A DNA stretch of 63,500 nucleotides from an uncultured Desulfobacteraceae bacterium. GTDB lineage: Bacteria; Desulfobacterota; Desulfobacteria; Desulfobacterales; UBA11574. The notes beneath the pieces were generated by a model. The model made no database searches and was not told the origin of the DNA. It saw only the letters and a list, made by a program, of their open reading frames with translations. The position numbers were made by a program, and so were the translations under genes. Of the stretch, positions 52,958 through 61,039 are shown in pieces. The stretch is from assembly GCA_964410925.1 (NCBI GenBank), contig CAYPIW010000051.1:1-63500 (forward strand). The letters run 5' to 3'. Every line of letters begins with the position of its first letter. The first letter of the stretch is position 1.

Positions 52958-55303
52958 TTGCCGTTTGAGGTTATAATACTGCTCACGATTGTTGCCGCGG
53001 CATTCGTCCTGTTTATCGGTGGCTGGCTGCGTGTGGATGTGGTTGGACTGCTGGTGCTGTCGGCCCTTGCATTGACGAATTTGGTCACTGCGCAAGAGGC
53101 TTTGGCCGGCTTCAGCAGCCCTGCAGTGGTCACCGTGTGGGCTTTGTTTATCCTGTCCGCGGGACTGACCCGCACCGGTATTGCCCATCAGCTCGGACAG
53201 CCGTTGCAGCGCTTCGCAAAAAGCAGCGAAGCCACGCTCATGGTTGCTTTGATGCTTGCCGCCAGTCTGCTGTCGGCGCTCATTAACACCGTGACCGTCG
53301 CAGCCATTCTACTGCCGACGACGATGGAGCTGGCCCGGCGCAGCGGGCGCCCACCCTCCCGGCTTCTTATGCCGCTGGCGCTCGGTTGCCTCCTCGGCGG
53401 TCCATTCACCGGCATCTCAACTCCACCCAACATCCTGGTGACCGATTTAGTCCGCAACGCAGGCTTGCCCCCCTTCGCCCTTTTCGACTTCACGCCCATA
53501 ACCGCAGCCATCGTTGTGGCCGGTATCGCCTTCATGGTGCTCGTCGGCCGTCGCCTGCTCCCCAGCCGCACCGCGGGGGTGGACACAGACAACCGTTTGG
53601 CACTTGGAGCTTCCTACCAGCTCGACACGCACATCTTCACCACCCGCATCCCATCGGAATCGCCGCTTGACGGCCGCACACTCGCCGAGAGCCGGCTCGG
53701 CTCAGCGCTTTATATGACTGTGCTGGCGCTCCAGCGAAAGGGTGGGTTGATACTCGCTCCCCGTCCAAATGACGTCCTTCAGTCAGGAGACACGCTCATC
53801 GCACACGGTAGTCCCTACCACTTGCAGCGCTATTATGCCAGCCAGCACCTCCAGATCGAGTCGCCCGACCAAGTCCAGAATCTGCTCCCCAAATATCTGC
53901 AAGTGGCTGAGGGACTTGTCACCGAGGGTTCGCCGCTGCTTGGCTCCACGCTTGCGGAGAGCGGCTTGCGGCGGGAGCATCGCGTTCATGTGCTGGCACT
54001 CTACCATCCAGCCGGAGGCGAGGTTAAGGATCTGCGACGGCATCAGTTTTCAACTGGAGAGAGACTGCTGCTGCAGGGAGAACGGGCAGATCTGGAAGAG
54101 TTGTCACGCCTGGGCTTTGTCACGGAACTGCGCTTCGTAGCGGCGGATAAGCTGAAGGCACTTGCCGGTGACCGTAACGAACTGCTGTCGGTACGCGTTC
54201 CACTGGGATCGGTGCTGGCCGAGCATAACCTGGTCGAAAGTCGCTTGGGGAATGCATTCGGTTTGACCGTCATAGGACTTGTACGTGGTGAAAAACTGCT
54301 GTGCATGCCTTCGCCGGATGAAAAGGTGCAGGCCGGTGATCTGCTTGTGCTGCAGGGTTCGCCTCGTGATCTCGAGGTTCTCGAAGGTCTCCAGGATCTG
54401 GAGATCGCAGAGCAATCCTCCAGCCTGGTTGCCGAACTGGAATCACAACAAATCGGCGTAACGGAAGTTCTGCTTTCACCCAGGACGACCCTTGCAGGAC
54501 AATCTCTTGCCGATCTGCTTTTCCGCGAGCGGTATGGCATCAGCGTGCTCGCCATCTGGAGAAGGGGCCGTGCCTATCGCACCGGGCTTCAGGACATGCC
54601 TTTGCAGTTCGGCGATGCTCTGCTGGTTTACGGACAACGCCGCAACCTGGAGGCCCTGGCTCGCGATTCCGACTTTCTCGTGCTGGATGAGTCAGTGGTG
54701 CGGGCGCCGCGCCTGGAGAAGGCTCGCATGGCCGTTGCCATCATGCTGGCGGTCATTTTGAGCGCTATCCTCGGCCTTGTTCCGATTGCCATTGCCGCCC
54801 TTACCGGAGCAGCGCTGATGGTACTCGTCGGATGCTTGAGCATGGAGGAAGCCTACCGGGCCATTGAGTGGAAGGTCGTGTTTGTTATCGCCAGCATGCT
54901 GCCGCTGGGAGCTGCCATCGAAAACACGGGAGCTGCGCAGATGGGCGCAGCTGCCTTGATCGCTGCGGTCGGTGATCTCGGCCCTCGCTGGGTTGTTGCG
55001 GCGCTCTTTATCGTGACCGTGCTCGGCACGCAAATCATTCCTACGGCTGCTCTGGTGGTGTTGATGGCTCCGGTGGCACTCAGCGCTGCCAGCATTTTGG
55101 GAATCTCGCCGCATTTGCTGATGATGACCGTGGCAATTTCGGCATCATCGAGCTTTGCCAGCCCGCTGTCGCATCCTGCACATCTACTTGTCATGGGCCC
55201 CGGCGGCTATCGCTTCATCGACTACGTGAAAGTCGGCGTGCCCATCACAATTATCTCGCTACTCGTGTCGGTGGGGCTGCTGCCCATCCTGTGGCCACCC
55301 TAA
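52958..55303 (+). CDS. SLC13/CitMHS-type permease with four TrkA-C (RCK_C) domains
   Basis: LRVDVVG, GFSSPAV, STPPNIL, four (S/T)xLxG(T/S)L..R repeats, EEAYRAIEW, GPGGYRFIDYVKVG; visibly GC-richer than the flanks. Confidence 0.9.
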   Translation: MPFEVIILLTIVAAAFVLFIGGWLRVDVVGLLVLSALALTNLVTAQEALAGFSSPAVVTVWALFILSAGLTRTGIAHQLGQPLQRFAKSSEATLMVALMLAASLLSALINTVTVAAILLPTTMELARRSGRPPSRLLMPLALGCLLGGPFTGISTPPNILVTDLVRNAGLPPFALFDFTPITAAIVVAGIAFMVLVGRRLLPSRTAGVDTDNRLALGASYQLDTHIFTTRIPSESPLDGRTLAESRLGSALYMTVLALQRKGGLILAPRPNDVLQSGDTLIAHGSPYHLQRYYASQHLQIESPDQVQNLLPKYLQVAEGLVTEGSPLLGSTLAESGLRREHRVHVLALYHPAGGEVKDLRRHQFSTGERLLLQGERADLEELSRLGFVTELRFVAADKLKALAGDRNELLSVRVPLGSVLAEHNLVESRLGNAFGLTVIGLVRGEKLLCMPSPDEKVQAGDLLVLQGSPRDLEVLEGLQDLEIAEQSSSLVAELESQQIGVTEVLLSPRTTLAGQSLADLLFRERYGISVLAIWRRGRAYRTGLQDMPLQFGDALLVYGQRRNLEALARDSDFLVLDESVVRAPRLEKARMAVAIMLAVILSAILGLVPIAIAALTGAALMVLVGCLSMEEAYRAIEWKVVFVIASMLPLGAAIENTGAAQMGAAALIAAVGDLGPRWVVAALFIVTVLGTQIIPTAALVVLMAPVALSAASILGISPHLLMMTVAISASSSFASPLSHPAHLLVMGPGGYRFIDYVKVGVPITIISLLVSVGLLPILWPP

Positions 55304-55395: not shown

Positions 55396-56556
55396 TCAGT
55401 TTGCTGAAAAACCCGATGACCATTTGTCTTGGTACCAATTGGCAATATCAGATGCTCGAGCGAATAAATACACCCCGATGAAGGCGGTGATCAAAATATA
55501 GACACCGCTGAAAATCCGCAACTGCGGCAGGGCCATGCCGGCGATGATGGCGGAGAACTCGCCGCGGTGCACCATTGAAAATGCGGCGCGACAGGCGACT
55601 TTCGGGCTCAATCCAAACCAGCGACTGCCGGCGTAGGCCGTGACGACCTTGCCCACAACCGCCAGAATGACAAGGGCGATCATCAAGCCAACGAAAGGAA
55701 TACCTTCACCGAACTGGAGGGTTGTTCCAAACCAGAAGAAAAAAAACGGCAGGGTAATATCTCGAACAGGCAGCAGCAGGCGTTCGATTTCGGTGGATCT
55801 TCCGGTTTCTGACAGCATGACGCCGGCCATAAACGCGCCCAGGATTTCAGATAAACCCATGGCTATGGCGAGGCCGGCGTAGGCCAGTGCCAAACCTGCC
55901 GCCAGAAGCGGCATGAAATCGTTTTCGATGTATCTTGCGATGAAATGCTTCATTTGTTTAAAGCCGTAATGTCCCATAAGGATGGCTCCTGCCATCAGAA
56001 CCACGATTTTAAAAGATAAAATTCCCATAAACGTCATGGAAAGCGCTTTCCCGCCGTAAATGCCGGCAATGAAAGAGACCAGGATGGGAGCCACCAGGTC
56101 TTCAAAAATGAGCAGCGCCAGGATAAACTCTGCTTCGGGATTTGCCAGACGTTTTTTTTCTTCCAGCATTTTGGCAGATATGGATGAACTTGTGGCATAG
56201 GTAACCGACCCGATGATGAACGCGGTTACAATGTCGAGGCCGAAAAGCATGGTGACGGTCATGGCGCCGCCCAGATTGACGGCAACATCGAGAAATCCGG
56301 CAGGCCAGACTCTTTTGGATATGGTAATCATCCGGGCCAGCGGAAATTCGAGCCCCAAAATAAAAAACAGCAAAACAATGCCGATTTCGGCCACGATATG
56401 AATCAATTCATTTTTAAAAAATAAGGAGGAAACCAAGGCGCCCAGCACGATATAAATCAAAACCGACGGAAGCCTGAATTTTTGTGAGGCAAAGCTGATG
56501 GCAAAAAATGTGCAGAGCATCAGCCCGGCTATCAGCAGAAAGGGTAGATTTTGCAT
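55396..56556 (-). CDS. khtU: CPA2 K+/H+ antiporter membrane subunit (KhtU/YhaU-like)
   Basis: LLFFILGLEF, TSSSISAK, LIFEDL, LGAFMAG, RGEFS; no C-terminal RCK domain; follows khtT. Confidence 0.82.
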   Translation of the reverse strand: MQNLPFLLIAGLMLCTFFAISFASQKFRLPSVLIYIVLGALVSSLFFKNELIHIVAEIGIVLLFFILGLEFPLARMITISKRVWPAGFLDVAVNLGGAMTVTMLFGLDIVTAFIIGSVTYATSSSISAKMLEEKKRLANPEAEFILALLIFEDLVAPILVSFIAGIYGGKALSMTFMGILSFKIVVLMAGAILMGHYGFKQMKHFIARYIENDFMPLLAAGLALAYAGLAIAMGLSEILGAFMAGVMLSETGRSTEIERLLLPVRDITLPFFFFWFGTTLQFGEGIPFVGLMIALVILAVVGKVVTAYAGSRWFGLSPKVACRAAFSMVHRGEFSAIIAGMALPQLRIFSGVYILITAFIGVYLFARASDIANWYQDKWSSGFSAN

Positions 56557-56568
56557 GCCTTAATATTC

Positions 56569-57099
56569 CTATGGATTCTCATTATGGTTCGGATCAACAT
56601 CATAGGTTGTCAGGGTGCATGATTTGCACAGAGATTCCAGTCTCTTGGTCTGTTCCCGATTGCCGATGACCATGAGAACATCACCAGGCAGGATGACCTC
56701 GTTAACATCCGGACTGCCGATCATTTTTTCGCCTCTCTGCACTCCGATGATGGTTACTCCGGTCTTGGTCCTGATTTGGGAGTCGATGATTTTTTTATTG
56801 GCGAGTTCACTGTCCGGCAAAATGTTGAGCCATTCGATCCGGATGTTTTTCAACAGCAGTTCCACCCGGTCATCGGCTACGGGCTGGTAATCGGCACCGA
56901 GAAGAATGGTCCCTAACTGGCGAGCCTCTTCATCGGTCAATTTTATCGTAAAATCCGGTTCGTCCTCATCGGATTTGGGAAAATGGTATAACTCCCGGTA
57001 TCCGCTGTGATGCAAAATAGTTACAAAATTGTCCCCTTCCGCCGTTATAAAGGAATAGCGTTTCCCAATTCCCGGCAGGTCGCTGGTTTTAATTTTCAT
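56569..57099 (-). CDS. khtT: K+/H+ antiporter regulatory subunit (KhtT/YhaT-like, RCK_C)
   Basis: TSDLPGIGKRY, LTDEEARQLG N-domain; IRTKTGVTIIGVQR..SP..GDVL RCK_C. Confidence 0.88.
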   Translation of the reverse strand: MKIKTSDLPGIGKRYSFITAEGDNFVTILHHSGYRELYHFPKSDEDEPDFTIKLTDEEARQLGTILLGADYQPVADDRVELLLKNIRIEWLNILPDSELANKKIIDSQIRTKTGVTIIGVQRGEKMIGSPDVNEVILPGDVLMVIGNREQTKRLESLCKSCTLTTYDVDPNHNENP

Positions 57100-57154: not shown

Positions 57155-58147
57155 TTATGGGTCCGCCCCGATACTCCCGCCAACGGCGTCCTTGCCTTTT
57201 GACTTAATATCAAACATGGCGCGATCCGCCTGAGCGAGCAGTCCGGTCATATCAATGGCATCATCCGGACAGGTAGAAACACCATAGCTTGCCTTCAGAC
57301 GGACCTGGTGTCCTCTATTAACCAAATAGAGCGTTCCCTTCATTCTGGTTCGAATTTCCTCTGCTTTTTGCATGGCCTGTTTTTTATTAAACTCCGGAAG
57401 CACAACCACAAACTCATCACCGCCATAGGCCACGCCATAAGCCGGCTTGGCAATAGATTCCCGGATGGTTGCAGACACTTCGGCCAAGGCTTGACTGCCG
57501 TTAAGGTGGCCGTATTTATCCACTACCTGCTTGAAGTTGTCTATGTCTAAAAAGATAAGCGAAAAAGGATTGCCGTCCGCCGCGCTGGCAGTGATGAGAT
57601 CACTCAAAGACTGGTAAAGATAACGGGTATTTTTAAGGCCGGTCAGATTGTCGTGGACGGCCAGATAACGAAACTTCTCCTCACTTTTTCTAAGATCCTC
57701 CTCGACCTGCATGCGTTCGGCGATTTCATCCTTTAGCTGCTGATTTACTTTTTTTAATTCTTCTCTTGAACGAAATAATTCCAGATGCGTCTTAACCCTG
57801 GCCAACAATTCGGCCCCATGAAAAGGTTTGGTTACATAGTCCATGGCGCCCACTTCAAATCCTTTGACAATACTTTCAGAAAGATTTTTTGCTGTGAGAA
57901 AAATAAGAGGAATATTCCTGGTGGCAGAATTTTTTCTTAATTGCTCACAAACAGCGAATCCATCCATGTCCGGCATCATTACATCGAGCAGAATGAGGTC
58001 GAACCGGTTGGATTGGGCCTGGGAAAGGGCTGATTTGCCGTTTTGGGCAAATGCCATCTGATAACCTTCTTTTTGCAGGATATTTGCGGCCAACTGGATG
58101 TTTTTGGGAATGTCGTCCACAATTAATATTTTAAACTTTGTTTTCAT
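57155..58147 (-). CDS. REC-GGDEF dinucleotide cyclase with non-canonical base-specificity residues (Hypr-like)
   Basis: Intact REC (IVDD, LLDVMMP, LTAK, KPF), then DNLTGLKNTRY, DIDNFKQVVDKYGHLNGS, AYGGDEF; no RxxD I-site. Confidence 0.9.
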   Translation of the reverse strand: MKTKFKILIVDDIPKNIQLAANILQKEGYQMAFAQNGKSALSQAQSNRFDLILLDVMMPDMDGFAVCEQLRKNSATRNIPLIFLTAKNLSESIVKGFEVGAMDYVTKPFHGAELLARVKTHLELFRSREELKKVNQQLKDEIAERMQVEEDLRKSEEKFRYLAVHDNLTGLKNTRYLYQSLSDLITASAADGNPFSLIFLDIDNFKQVVDKYGHLNGSQALAEVSATIRESIAKPAYGVAYGGDEFVVVLPEFNKKQAMQKAEEIRTRMKGTLYLVNRGHQVRLKASYGVSTCPDDAIDMTGLLAQADRAMFDIKSKGKDAVGGSIGADP

Positions 58148-60441
58148 TGTCCATGTCCGTCTGCCTTTTTCTCTCCATGAAGTAATAATCTTATTCTTTC
58201 GATTAATTCAGGATAGGAGTCTAAAGTGACATTCATATTTTCTACGTCAAAATGACTGACCTGAGTACTTAACTCATCTCCGAATCTCTTAAGAACCTCC
58301 AATGAATATTTTTCGCCCAATTCTTTCATCTGATGCCCGAACGCTGCGATATCATCAAAAAAAAGGTTTTTACGAGTCGATTCCCATAATTTCATATATT
58401 CGTTATCAAGGGTATCAATAACACCGGGCAGCTGTTCGATAACTTCAGGCGACAGCCTCACAACTTCTTGTGTTTTTTCATTTCTTTCCTTTTTTGAATA
58501 TTTAATAAACCGACTGACTTCCCGAAATAATTCTGACTGTTGTATGGGTTTGCTCAAGAACCCGTGAAAACCGCTGCGCAGGATTTGTTCTTTCTCTTCT
58601 TTCATTCCGAAAGCGGTTAAAGCGATGATGGGAATAGTCATTGTTTCCGCATCTCTGCGGATTAGTTTTGCTGCTTCATGTCCATCCATGCCCGGGAGTC
58701 TTATGTCCATTAAAATGATATCGGGCCTGTGCTCTTTGGCAAGAAGGATTGCTTTTTCACCATCTTCTGCTTCGATAATAGTGATATTTGTTTGCCAAAA
58801 ATATTCTTTTATTAATTCCCGGTTGATTTCAATATCATCCACAACCAAAATGAGCGACTTTTCAAAAATGATATCTTCACTGTCAAAAATGTCCTCTATT
58901 TCGGATTTAGCTTCTTCAGGGGCAATAGGTACATGAGGAAGAATTATTTCAAAGCGAGTGCCCTTATTCTCCTCACTTTGAAGAGAAATATATCCGCCCA
59001 TTATTTCAACCAATCGTTTTGTGATTGCCAGACCCAATCCAGTACCGCCGTATCGTTTGGTACTTTGACCATATCCCTGTTTGAAAGCCTCAAATATTTC
59101 ATCCCGGGATTCGGAAGGAATGCCGATCCCGGTATCCTCCAAAGCGATAATCAGATCCAAATGGTGCTGATCTTTTTTTATATCTTTTTTTTTGGCACTG
59201 ACCTTTATATATCCTTTTTCTGTAAACTTTATTGCATTGTCGATCAGGTTAAATAATATTTGCCTCAAACGCAATTCATCCAAAATTAAGTTTTTAGGAA
59301 TATCCTGAGCAATATCTACAATAAAATCAAGATCTTTTTCTAGTGCCGTCAAGGAAAAAATATGTTTGATTTCATTAAAAAATGAGTAAGGATCAACAGG
59401 CTCGCATTGAAGTTCTATCTTTCTGGCCTCAATTTTCGATAGATCGAGAATACTATTAATCAGCGTCAACAAACTTTTACCGCTGGATTGAATCGATTCA
59501 AGATAATTTTTCTGCCTTTTATCCGTGATCAAAGAATTGAGTAAGTCAGCGAAACCTAACACAGTATTCAAGGGGGTACGAATCTCATGGGACATGTTGG
59601 CCAGAAACTCGCTCTTTGCACGGTTCGCAGATTCAGCGGAATCTTTGGCCGCAAGCAATTCCTTGTTAACCTGATGAAGTTCGGCGGTACGAAGGGTTAC
59701 CTGTTCTTCCAGGTGCTCTCTATTCTGCTTCAGCTCATTATCGCGAGACTGAATCCGGGCCAACATCTCATTGAAACCGTCAATAAGGATTCCAATTTCA
59801 TCCTGGCTGTGCTTTTCTGCCCGGACGGAGAAATCTTTTTCTTTTGAAATGGTTCTGGCGGTTTCCGTCAAGCTCAAAATCGGCTCGGAAATAACGCGCT
59901 GGAGCCAGGATGACAATATCCAGGCGATAAAAAAAGCAACCAATACAATAACAGCAAAGATAGCGGCGGACTGTATCATTTCAATATTCATCCTGCTCAA
60001 ATCATATTGAATGCAGACTGTCCCGATAATATCATTTTCAAAAAGGATTTTTTGAAACATAAACAAATAATTCCCCTCATAGTAGTGGCCTTCTTTCTGA
60101 AGATCAGGGGGAACCATTTCTTTGTCAGCGTCCTGGCGATGATATGTGGCAAAGACTTTCCCGTTATTATCATAAATACAGGCAAAGAAGATATCCGGTT
60201 TGGCGCGCAGTGCTGCCAGATTCTTCTCAGCCGTTCGTTTATCAAAGAAAACCAGCGCTCCCTCACTATTTAGCCCGATCACCTGCGCTAAACTGGAAAG
60301 ATCATGGCGCAGGGCTTTCCGAGATGTGGTGACATCTTTAAAAATAAAGGCTATGGAAGCAAACAGTATGGTAATACCGCTGGTGAGCATAATAATTGTT
60401 TTTAGCTTCCATTTAATGGAAAGGTTTTGGAAGGCGCCCAT
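58144..60441 (-). CDS. Hybrid sensor kinase: TM-CHASE8-TM-HAMP-HisKA-HATPase-REC plus helical tail
   Basis: GLNSEGALVFFD periplasmic domain, DEIGILIDGFNEML HAMP, FLANMSHEIRTPL, DTGIGI, GGTGLG, LMDIRLP. Confidence 0.92.
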   Translation of the reverse strand: MGAFQNLSIKWKLKTIIMLTSGITILFASIAFIFKDVTTSRKALRHDLSSLAQVIGLNSEGALVFFDKRTAEKNLAALRAKPDIFFACIYDNNGKVFATYHRQDADKEMVPPDLQKEGHYYEGNYLFMFQKILFENDIIGTVCIQYDLSRMNIEMIQSAAIFAVIVLVAFFIAWILSSWLQRVISEPILSLTETARTISKEKDFSVRAEKHSQDEIGILIDGFNEMLARIQSRDNELKQNREHLEEQVTLRTAELHQVNKELLAAKDSAESANRAKSEFLANMSHEIRTPLNTVLGFADLLNSLITDKRQKNYLESIQSSGKSLLTLINSILDLSKIEARKIELQCEPVDPYSFFNEIKHIFSLTALEKDLDFIVDIAQDIPKNLILDELRLRQILFNLIDNAIKFTEKGYIKVSAKKKDIKKDQHHLDLIIALEDTGIGIPSESRDEIFEAFKQGYGQSTKRYGGTGLGLAITKRLVEIMGGYISLQSEENKGTRFEIILPHVPIAPEEAKSEIEDIFDSEDIIFEKSLILVVDDIEINRELIKEYFWQTNITIIEAEDGEKAILLAKEHRPDIILMDIRLPGMDGHEAAKLIRRDAETMTIPIIALTAFGMKEEKEQILRSGFHGFLSKPIQQSELFREVSRFIKYSKKERNEKTQEVVRLSPEVIEQLPGVIDTLDNEYMKLWESTRKNLFFDDIAAFGHQMKELGEKYSLEVLKRFGDELSTQVSHFDVENMNVTLDSYPELIERIRLLLHGEKKADGHGQ

Positions 60442-60442
60442 C

Positions 60443-61039
60443 TTATTCCTGTCCTCCTTTAACAATTTCAGCTGACATAAGAATTTGTGAGCTTAATTTC
60501 AATCCCGCCTTCCTGGCGGCATCGACGTTGACTTCAAAACGGAGCCGTTTTTGTTCCATAAAAAAATTGATGATTCCCCCCATTTGAGCAAAGCCGTCTA
60601 TTTCTCCCACGGTTAATATGTTTCGATTTTTTAAATCAATTAATTTTTGCTGAATGAATGCCTTGTCCTCTGTTCCAAAGAAAAAAATGTTACACCCTTC
60701 GGTGCCATGGTCATCTTCATATTTTCTTACTTCTATTTTTTTTCCGCTGACGATCTTATCGTTAAGGTCAAAAAGAATATCGCTTAAAGGATTATTCGAG
60801 GCAAAACAGAGGACAATAACGTTATTGTTATTCACAAACGCGTCGGGCGGCCACTCAACAAATTTTGCAAAATTATAAATAAAGCCGGCCTTAACGTGAT
60901 ATTCCAAACCGGAAAGAGTTTCCGTGTGGGCGTATTTAGCGACGAGCATCATCAGGCAACACACGATCATGGCGACGTGTCGGCCGATATTTCCCCCCGC
61001 TTTAGTTTTTTGAAGCCTGTCTTTCATGCAGCATTTCAT
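60443..61039 (-). CDS. yfiR: YfiR family (DUF4154) periplasmic protein
   Basis: EYHVKAGFIYNFAKFVEWP, LTVGE, GGIINF, RFEVN, GLKLSSQIL. Confidence 0.88.
   Translation of the reverse strand: MKCCMKDRLQKTKAGGNIGRHVAMIVCCLMMLVAKYAHTETLSGLEYHVKAGFIYNFAKFVEWPPDAFVNNNNVIVLCFASNNPLSDILFDLNDKIVSGKKIEVRKYEDDHGTEGCNIFFFGTEDKAFIQQKLIDLKNRNILTVGEIDGFAQMGGIINFFMEQKRLRFEVNVDAARKAGLKLSSQILMSAEIVKGGQE

Follow-up and report, generated by a model that had tools for sequence, protein, structure and literature searches.

GGDEF domains, which rank with the commonest signalling enzymes of bacteria, nearly always bear the annotation 'diguanylate cyclase'. That one residue change can redirect a GGDEF domain to cyclic GMP-AMP (cGAMP) was shown by the rare Hypr enzymes. 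How far the nucleotide choice of GGDEF enzymes drifts, and whether automatic 'diguanylate cyclase' labels are wrong in the organisms concerned, are questions raised by a gene of an uncultured Desulfobacteraceae bacterium (assembly GCA_964410925.1, contig CAYPIW010000051.1, positions 1 to 63,500; this whole stretch of 63,500 nucleotides (nt) is the window). The gene, a single open reading frame (ORF) on the minus strand at 57155..58147, encodes P0001, a 330-residue response regulator of the REC-linker-GGDEF type. Judged from its sequence, P0001 is best assigned to a distinct and conserved, monophyletic sub-lineage of Hypr GGDEF proteins, called Val-type here. We give about an even chance to the reading that it is a purine dinucleotide cyclase under phosphorelay control, with its base choice shifted toward adenine. 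The parts of the gene are the following.

57155..58147, minus: REC-linker-GGDEF gene (P0001), Val-type, Hypr lineage (ORF, translation, Pfam, AlphaFold2 (AF2) model)
57791..58129, minus: receiver (REC), residues 7-119 (Pfam Response_reg PF00072, E 1.5e-32)
57662..57790, minus: long helical linker, residues 120-162, leading into the DxLT motif (D166..T169) (AF2 model)
57188..57661, minus: GGDEF catalytic domain, residues 163-320 (Pfam PF00990, E 1.6e-35; same coordinates in the genome-wide GGDEF scan)
57626..57628, minus: T174, cross-dimer position (alignment to PleD and 6d9m)
57521..57523, minus: V209 (GTG), in place of the sugar-face Asn (PleD N335, GacA Asn339), clade-defining
57494..57496, minus: S218 (AGT), Watson-Crick-face position (PleD D344, GacA Ser348), the Hypr-defining Ser
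57440..57451, minus: AKPA where PleD and GacA have RxxD; inhibitory site (I-site) absent (alignment)
57428..57430, minus: A240, in place of the Arg two residues before GGDEF (alignment)
57410..57424, minus: GGDEF motif with Asp third, as Ser-type enzymes require (codons checked)
57212..57214, minus: F312, a clade-specific Phe; Tyr in other GGDEF proteins (group comparison)

The nucleotide pocket of P0001 and the Val-type lineage

The GGDEF domain scored 122.7 bits against PF00990 (cut-off 23.8) and 137.1 against TIGR00254 (cut-off 37.4), and Pfam gave no match to a DAC domain in P0001. In the receiver, D11, D12 and the phospho-acceptor D55 are present (codons checked), and T85 and K107 were read off the sequence. 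In the AF2 model, whose mean predicted local distance difference test score (pLDDT) is 93.5, one helix spans residues 111-164 and joins both domains; the DxLT/linker logic of Rec-GGDEF enzymes has been described (PMC8041772; here and below, published work is represented by excerpts of the papers). A preliminary description of this gene, made from the letters alone, had listed the catalytic elements as intact, and all were located: DID at 201-203, FK at 205-206, GGDEF at 242-246, and distal K315 with K319. Its departures from the canonical motifs were likewise exactly as described, with NTR at 173-175, VVDKYGHLNGS at 208-218 (Ser codon AGT), AYGGDEF at 240-246 and no RxxD, the site being occupied by AKPA at 233-236. 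Asn216, within the second of these motifs, is placed by the AF2 model in the opening turn of the helix formed by residues 214-231.

The GGDEF domain was aligned with that of PleD and with 6d9m, a T4-lysozyme fusion of the Geobacter metallireducens Hypr GGDEF domain. Both HMMER alignments are gap-free across all motifs, and the residue equivalences are thus independent of alignment choice.

Cross-dimer region: PleD LTGLHNRRYM; 6d9m LTGLFNYRYL; P0001 LTGLKNTRYL
Base-reading region: PleD DIDFFKKINDTFGHDIGDE; 6d9m DLDFFKGVNDTHGHLVGSQ; P0001 DIDNFKQVVDKYGHLNGSQ
I-site and GGDEF region: PleD RAIDLPCRYGGEEF; 6d9m REVDIVIRYGGDEF; P0001 AKPAYGVAYGGDEF

P0001 has in common with 6d9m the Watson-Crick Ser, GGDEF rather than GGEEF, and a residue other than Arg directly after the Asn of the cross-dimer motif, but it differs from both PleD and 6d9m in having Val for Asn, Ala for Arg at -2 of GGDEF, and AKPA for RxxD. 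The proposed link between the Asp-to-Ser change and the Hypr enzymes was borne out: 6d9m is the top sequence match of the domain in the PDB (E 1.1e-28, versus 7.9e-25 for PleD) and the closest solved structure to the model (root-mean-square deviation 1.1 Å over 164 columns at 40% identity; Foldseek), and the corresponding tree group, described below, has a support of 97.

Published work places these residues as follows. In DgcR, guanine is bound by N182 and D191 in a pocket between helices α1 and α2 (PMC8041772), and Ser at the position of PleD D344 has been termed 'Hypr-defining' (PMC8835794). According to the so-called Goldilocks rule, Ser/Thr enzymes are exclusively GGDE[F/Y] and never GGEEF (PMC6456294). 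About 94% of predicted cyclases carry the first Arg of the NRR motif, a residue that acts on the other substrate from across the dimer; in GacA its place is taken by Tyr304, and Hypr enzymes with Tyr, Ser, Ala or Gln at this position make mainly cGAMP (PMC6456294). Bd0367 has Met there and keeps its I-site (R260; PMC9140294). Since the cross-dimer Arg is already replaced in these published Hypr enzymes (Tyr in GacA, Met in Bd0367, Ser, Ala or Gln elsewhere), the Arg-to-Thr change of P0001 is a Hypr trait. The earlier suggestion that the substitutions go beyond the Hypr signature therefore stood for Asn-to-Val and Arg-to-Ala, but had to be given up for Arg-to-Thr (PMC6456294, PMC9140294). By alignment, what lies beyond the published Hypr picture is Asn-to-Val, Arg-to-Ala at -2 of GGDEF, loss of the I-site, Tyr-to-Phe at 312, and a conserved Val239. 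The RxxD I-site, five residues before GGDEF, is common but not universal among diguanylate cyclases; to the Arg before GGDEF no role is assigned, a full-text search on PleD and Arg366 having come back empty. Set against the two known types, P0001 lacks the Asn+Asp pair, the cross-dimer Arg and the RxxD of the PleD/WspR type, and has the Ser at the D344 position, the GGDE[F/Y] motif and the non-Arg cross-dimer residue of the GacA/Bd0367 type, but not its sugar-face Asn. Val209, Ser218 and Ala240 are three sites that should be informative on purine selection.

The preliminary description had asked whether the substitutions mark a conserved clade or are private decay of this allele, and the homologues answer in favour of a clade. 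When 5.8 billion proteins were searched by word index, the 120 best matches (58-100% identity) came mostly from Desulfobacterales-type sources and had REC-GGDEF or REC-PAS-GGDEF architectures. All 120 have Val-Asp at the Asn site and Ser at the Watson-Crick site. VAYGGDEF was found in 118, the other two giving no match to the regular expression (one of them, P0078, is a 244-residue partial sequence); NTR was found in 110, the other 10 being unmatched by the expression for the preceding motif. In a full HMMER scan, 1.84 billion cluster representatives yielded 442,401 GGDEF matches at E<=0.001 and 188 at E<=1e-30. Among the best 150 matches, the single-domain ones down to about 40% identity all combine Val with a small Watson-Crick residue; the next-nearest single-domain matches (P0215, P0252 and P0257; 37-43% identity) are Asn+Ser and carry the classical Hypr signature, with Arg before GGDEF in all three and RxxD in P0215 and P0257. 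The remainder of the 150 are canonical Asn+Asp domains of tandem-GGDEF proteins. When the domains of these matches were pooled with those of the ORFs at fetched loci, 313 non-identical rows were obtained (87 Val-type, 41 Asn+Ser/Thr, listed as Asn+Ser, 176 Asn+Asp, and 9 other), which compare as follows.

Position 174: T 74%, R 10% and Q 9% in Val-type
Position 209: V in 100% of the 87 Val-type rows; N in 100% of the 41 Asn+Ser and 176 Asn+Asp rows
Position 216: N 70% in Val-type; V/I/A in Asn+Ser; A/V/T in Asn+Asp
Position 218: S in 82, A in 4 and G in 1 of the 87 Val-type rows
Positions 233 and 236: no R..D in Val-type; R 90% and D 90% in Asn+Ser
Position 239: V 98% in Val-type; not conserved in the other groups
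Position 240: A 67%, S 16% and R 16% in Val-type; R 100% in Asn+Ser; R 79% in Asn+Asp
Position 242: A in 31% of Val-type rows, that is, AGDEF in about a third
Position 244: D in 100% of the 87 Val-type rows, the motif being G/A-G-D-E-F/Y
Position 312: F 94% in Val-type; Y 100% in Asn+Ser; Y 78% in Asn+Asp

Across 40 Val-type loci the V209 codon is GTG in 17, GTC in 11, GTT in 10 and GTA in 2. All four Val codons are thus in use; the residue is kept while the codon drifts, which points to purifying selection on Val209 and Ser218. In 22 clade members with REC, PAS or GAF N-termini (30-87% identity), D201, D203, F205, K206, V209, D210 and H214 are invariant, as are G217, S218, G243, D244, E245 and K315. 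With its catalytic and metal-binding residues unchanged throughout the clade, P0001 is likely to be an active cyclase. The varied sensor domains (REC, PAS, GAF), together with several paralogues per genome, are as expected for enzymes that write a second messenger.

A tree was built from 136 domains (57 Val-type, 30 Asn+Ser and 49 Asn+Asp), taken as random subsamples plus the paralogues of the genome itself. All 57 Val-type rows fell on one side of a branch whose Shimodaira-Hasegawa-like approximate likelihood ratio test (SH-aLRT) support was 86 with all columns and 95 after the seven trait columns had been removed. With the trait columns removed, Val-type and Asn+Ser rows, together with one Asn+Asp row, formed one group with a support of 97, and midpoint rooting placed the Val-type branch within the Asn+Ser rows. 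Deeper Val-type members (e.g. L042, L044 and L047) retain the Arg and Asp of RxxD, whereas the crown group of P0001 is without them. This arrangement fits an order from canonical to Ser-type (Hypr) to Val-type, neither root nor order being proven; that the tree comes from a quick IQ-TREE search (LG+G4, midpoint rooting) on a random subsample counts against the adenine-shifted reading.

Among 80 related loci from species-representative genomes, 30 were Val-type, 38 Asn+Ser and 10 Asn+Asp, and 2 could not be typed. Desulfobacterota supply most of the Val-type loci, and the others come from one Spirochaetes bin, one Verrucomicrobia bin and some bins without classification; the Asn+Ser loci come from Acidobacteriota, Nitrospirota, Myxococcota, Bdellovibrionota, Geobacteraceae and others. 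In the order to which the window belongs, one of sulfate-reducing Desulfobacterota, 301 sampled genomes were searched with a DNA pattern for F-K-x-x-V-D-x-x-G-H-x-x-G-S, with Ser as AGY; it matched in at least 75 of them, up to three times within one genome, and its control had 0 matches; the count is a lower bound, the known carriers G024, G027 and G063 having been missed. An Asn+Ser query run against 151 genomes of the order returned only 2 Asn+Ser loci among its best 30, both from one genus. Of 15 other genomes from the genus of the window, one, G014, yielded an orthologue (87% identity).

No description of the Asn-to-Val clade was found in the text of the literature searched; figures and supplements, such as the logos of eLife Fig. 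6 supplement 1, lay outside the search, and logos of that type may already show Val-type sequences among Hypr candidates. A survey of 139,801 GGDEF proteins, as excerpted, scored the GG[D/E]EF motif and the GsGacA positions 347 (Ser) and 303 (cross-dimer) only, not the Asn. With no other positions scored, the survey would have overlooked Val-type enzymes or counted them among ordinary Hypr enzymes.

Expected nucleotide choice and the input module

The favoured reading, an adenine-shifted cyclase under phosphorelay control, takes P0001 to keep the pairing of Ser with GGDEF that would let it, like other Hypr enzymes, use ATP as well as GTP; the sugar-face Asn is exchanged for Val, Arg for Ala and Tyr for Phe, and the RxxD feedback site is lost. 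The lost Asn can bond the guanine-specific 2-amino group and the N3 shared by both purines, and putting Val in its place should therefore penalise GTP more strongly than ATP: adenine would offer only its C2-H to Val209, and the 2-amino group of guanine would lose its partner. A base bias further toward adenine than that of GacA would be expected. The main product would most likely be 3',3'-cGAMP, accompanied by more cyclic di-AMP (c-di-AMP) than GacA makes, and there would be no feedback by product or cyclic di-GMP (c-di-GMP) through the I-site. The case for adenine thus follows from Hypr ancestry, the Ser+GGDEF pairing, the non-Arg cross-dimer residue and the loss of the sugar-face Asn. The Val-type clade can be seen as a conserved second step on the Hypr path, in which the other base reader and two further polar residues are changed and the feedback site is gone.

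The conservation data also bear on whether such an enzyme makes a dinucleotide of these purines at all. The Ala or Gly found at the Watson-Crick site in 5 of 87 rows, and the Thr in a second Val-type copy of the same genome, suggest base reading unlike that of characterised GGDEF proteins. AGDEF replaces GGDEF in about a third of the clade (A 31% at 242), and Hypr enzymes have been published to take other purine nucleoside triphosphates. P0001 could then make a dinucleotide of another purine, a non-canonical dinucleotide or a linear product, or could be a non-catalytic nucleotide-binding sensor. We hold this to be very unlikely: the clade conserves its metal-binding, phosphate-binding and general-base residues without exception, which is unusual for degenerate receptor-type GGDEF domains, and the Goldilocks argument disfavours pyrimidines for the Ser+GGDEF geometry (PMC6456294).

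Upstream of the gene lie two further genes of the same strand, which supply a candidate input.

58144..60465, minus: hybrid histidine kinase, 773 residues, with CHASE8, HAMP, HisKA, HATPase_c and REC, then 119 residues (Pfam)
60443..61039, minus: YfiR-like periplasmic protein (DUF4154) (PF13689, E 1.7e-42; NCBIfam NF053591, 129.4 versus a cut-off of 125)

The CHASE8 domain of the kinase was assigned through PF17152 (E 2.6e-17), and the kinase stop overlaps the start of the GGDEF gene in a 4-nt ATGA. The order YfiR-like protein, CHASE8 kinase, REC-GGDEF is kept at the orthologous loci L120 (87% identity) and L010 (63%). A complex model of the mature YfiR-like protein with the periplasmic part of the kinase scored 0.76 by the interaction prediction score from aligned errors (ipSAE), versus 0.37 for the best control; in a benchmark, 58 of the 80 solved complexes came up to this mark, as did 2 of the 110 mismatched pairs, counts that hold approximately since three-row alignments were used. 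Contacts are identical between runs (100% agreement), and the partner has a pLDDT of at least 84. On this model, the YfiR-like protein is likely to be a repressor or ligand of the CHASE8 domain. The operon could accordingly form an envelope-sensing phosphorelay, in which the YfiR-like protein would act on the CHASE8-HAMP hybrid kinase and the kinase on the REC-GGDEF output; phosphorylation of the receiver would then lead to dimerisation and activation of the cyclase. The C-terminal extension of 119 residues is conserved in both orthologous kinases and might be an unrecognised phosphotransfer domain.

Genomic context and the rival products

Downstream of the gene, the window contains the following pair.

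55396-57099, minus: KhtT-like (TrkA_C) and Na_H_Exchanger (KhtU-like) genes (7agv, E 1.6e-22, full length, for KhtT; Pfam for the pair)

These genes share their strand with the GGDEF gene, from which they are separated by 55 nt devoid of any terminator-like site. In Bacillus subtilis, KhtTU is a c-di-AMP-activated K+/H+ antiporter. Such a neighbourhood would suit a dedicated GGDEF-fold diadenylate cyclase whose Val/Ser/Ala pocket excludes guanine and which, under two-component control and in parallel to a CdaA-type enzyme, makes c-di-AMP as its essentially sole product. The pocket speaks for it as well, both side chains that bond guanine-specific groups being gone and the changes N-to-V, R-to-A and Y-to-F all running from polar to apolar, and GacA and Bd0367 already make some c-di-AMP (PMC6456294, PMC9140294). 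However, Ser218 can still bond guanine, as the Watson-Crick Ser does in the GacA structure (PMC6456294), and a protein of CdaA_N-DAC-YbbR type is already encoded in the genome, which leaves no gap in c-di-AMP synthesis. We consider a dedicated diadenylate cyclase unlikely. The antiporter genes were themselves rejected as a c-di-AMP effector link: the adjacency was found in 0 of the 80 related loci and is absent beside the 87% and 63% orthologues, with no KhtT/KhtU in the approximately 960 nt downstream of L120 (same genus) nor at L010. The arrangement is thus unconserved and possibly local.

The diadenylate cyclase of the genome has 474 residues, with the CdaA N-terminal membrane domain, DAC and YbbR (CdaR-like) repeats (G000:C172:15454-15807, minus; L008 763..2187). 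Convergent with the antiporter genes is a 781-residue transporter of the CitMHS/SLC13 type (52958-55303, plus), in which four TrkA_C stretches lie between two membrane halves.

A census of the GGDEF proteins of the genome bears on the opposite alternative, that P0001 is still mainly a diguanylate cyclase in which the substitutions retune affinity or regulation (for example by removing feedback) and leave the messenger the same. GGDEF genes are few, with seven matches in all, and the only riboswitch receptors seen in the genome are GEMM-I elements of the c-di-GMP type. All database names of clade members say 'diguanylate cyclase', though these are automatic. There is also direct precedent in the Ser-type enzymes Cabther_A1065 and Ddes1475, which make more c-di-GMP than cGAMP; this pair, however, has the cross-dimer Arg, where P0001 has Thr (PMC6456294). 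The seven matches comprise four ordinary Asn+Asp proteins, P0001, a second Val-type copy (contig C86) and one fragment, so that four enzymes remain for c-di-GMP. Moreover, both guanine-reading residues are replaced in P0001, and invariantly so, while the D-to-S change alone has been published to inactivate four of five canonical cyclases. A mainly c-di-GMP-making P0001 is, in our judgement, doubtful.

The second Val-type copy (G000:C86:68986-69453, plus; L006 943..1986) is a 347-residue GAF-GGDEF protein that falls within the Val-type branch of the tree. Its cross-dimer residue is Ser, Val and Thr occupy the Asn and Watson-Crick sites respectively, and its motif is GGDEY, preceded by Lys. The product of the ORF just upstream of it resembles, as judged by eye, a mechanosensitive channel with a cyclic-nucleotide-binding domain. 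A class of GGDEF domains common in the order (e.g. L133, L144, L123, L145, L130 and L139) is canonical in having Asn+Asp, RxxD and GGEEF, but has Ser in place of the cross-dimer Arg.

To return to the adenine-shifted cyclase, several points weigh against it. No Val-type protein came to light that has been characterised, and we infer both the identity of the product and the catalytic activity of P0001. Mutation of the sugar-face Asn could weaken the binding of both purines equally, and with Ala or Gly at the Watson-Crick site of some Val-type rows base reading may differ from that of GacA. As for control, the 119 C-terminal residues of the kinase (58147-58503, minus) match no Pfam family, Hpt included, at E<=1, so that the phosphotransfer route to REC is conjectural. 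An all-against-all BLAST of 165 flanking ORFs revealed no effector gene conserved beside the 30 Val-type loci; the sole recurrent neighbour cluster comprises 7 ORFs from 6 loci, one being the kinase ORF of L010 and the others unannotated. The riboswitches add to this list. The genome has two GEMM-I elements:

G000:C233:2204-2280, plus (L090)
G000:C58:15143-15257, plus (L091)

Both are G20, of the c-di-GMP type, and no cGAMP-type riboswitch receptor is visible in the genome. Nor are A20 elements, which bear the cGAMP-type signature, enriched with Val-type genes among the genomes of the order, occurring together in 5 of 14 genomes versus a base rate of at least 75 of 301.

The A20 scan behind this comparison gave 23 matches in 22 of 301 genomes, and its reversed-pattern control matched in 9 genomes; it used one pattern, from which the GC-type stem was left out, and 13 matches plus one doubtful were judged real by eye. 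Ten other Val-type genomes contained 32 GEMM-I matches, 3 of them with A20, and in those three genomes the Val-type protein is the sole Ser-type GGDEF. A20 alone is insufficient for cGAMP selectivity; the result on co-occurrence is therefore neutral rather than negative. The L090 element was also considered as a c-di-GMP-I-GGC variant (59.8 bits, cut-off 59), but its hallmark position is A, not G, and it is thus an ordinary c-di-GMP-type aptamer. As judged by eye, the element lies ahead of a small predicted lipoprotein whose tail is PEP-CTERM-like. Nine genomes with an A20-type element (G237, G135, G155, G143, G122, G065, G138, G126 and G022) gave no Val-type or Asn+Ser match at E<=1e-22; these elements are at loci L195, L196, L202, L203, L205, L208, L209, L212 and L213.

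A broader proposal concerns the clade as a whole: Val-type proteins would be ATP-preferring GGDEF-fold cyclases that no longer read guanine and make c-di-AMP, or a dinucleotide as yet unassigned to GGDEF proteins. We put it forward tentatively, thinking it unlikely to hold. If true, Desulfobacterota would have a second way of making an adenine messenger, one that does not depend on DAC enzymes, is controlled by sensors through REC, PAS or GAF inputs and escapes I-site feedback.

Comparison with known systems

PleD, WspR and DgcR are like P0001 in architecture, fold, DxLT motif with helical linker, and catalytic residues. They differ in guanine reading by Asn+Asp, in the cross-dimer Arg, in RxxD and in GGEEF, none of which P0001 has. 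Bd0367 (DgcA) of Bdellovibrio bacteriovorus is closer, being a response-regulator GGDEF protein with the specificity Ser, but it keeps the I-site (R260) and has Met at the cross-dimer position (PMC9140294). Like P0001, GacA (GSU1658 / Gmet_1914; 6D9M) has the Rec-GGDEF architecture, a Watson-Crick Ser, Asp as the third residue of GGDEF and a non-Arg cross-dimer residue, and it falls in the same larger tree group. Unlike P0001, it retains Asn339, the Arg before GGDEF, the Tyr that corresponds to Phe312, and the RxxD I-site, and its cross-dimer residue is Tyr rather than Thr. The Rec domain of MxGacA has been described as an orphan whose partner kinases are unidentified in the literature excerpted, whereas the P0001 gene is translationally coupled to a hybrid histidine kinase.

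The DAC-domain enzymes CdaA and DisA are unrelated to P0001 in fold and family, and a product would be shared with them only if the c-di-AMP reading is right. For the input side, the closest likeness is YfiBNR (TpbB/DgcN), where, as at the P0001 locus, a YfiR-family protein stands beside a CHASE8 sensor that controls a GGDEF output. YfiR acts on the CHASE8 domain of YfiN, in which CHASE8-HAMP is fused directly to a canonical GGDEF domain. At the P0001 locus, in contrast, CHASE8-HAMP is carried by a hybrid histidine kinase, and the GGDEF domain by a separate response regulator.

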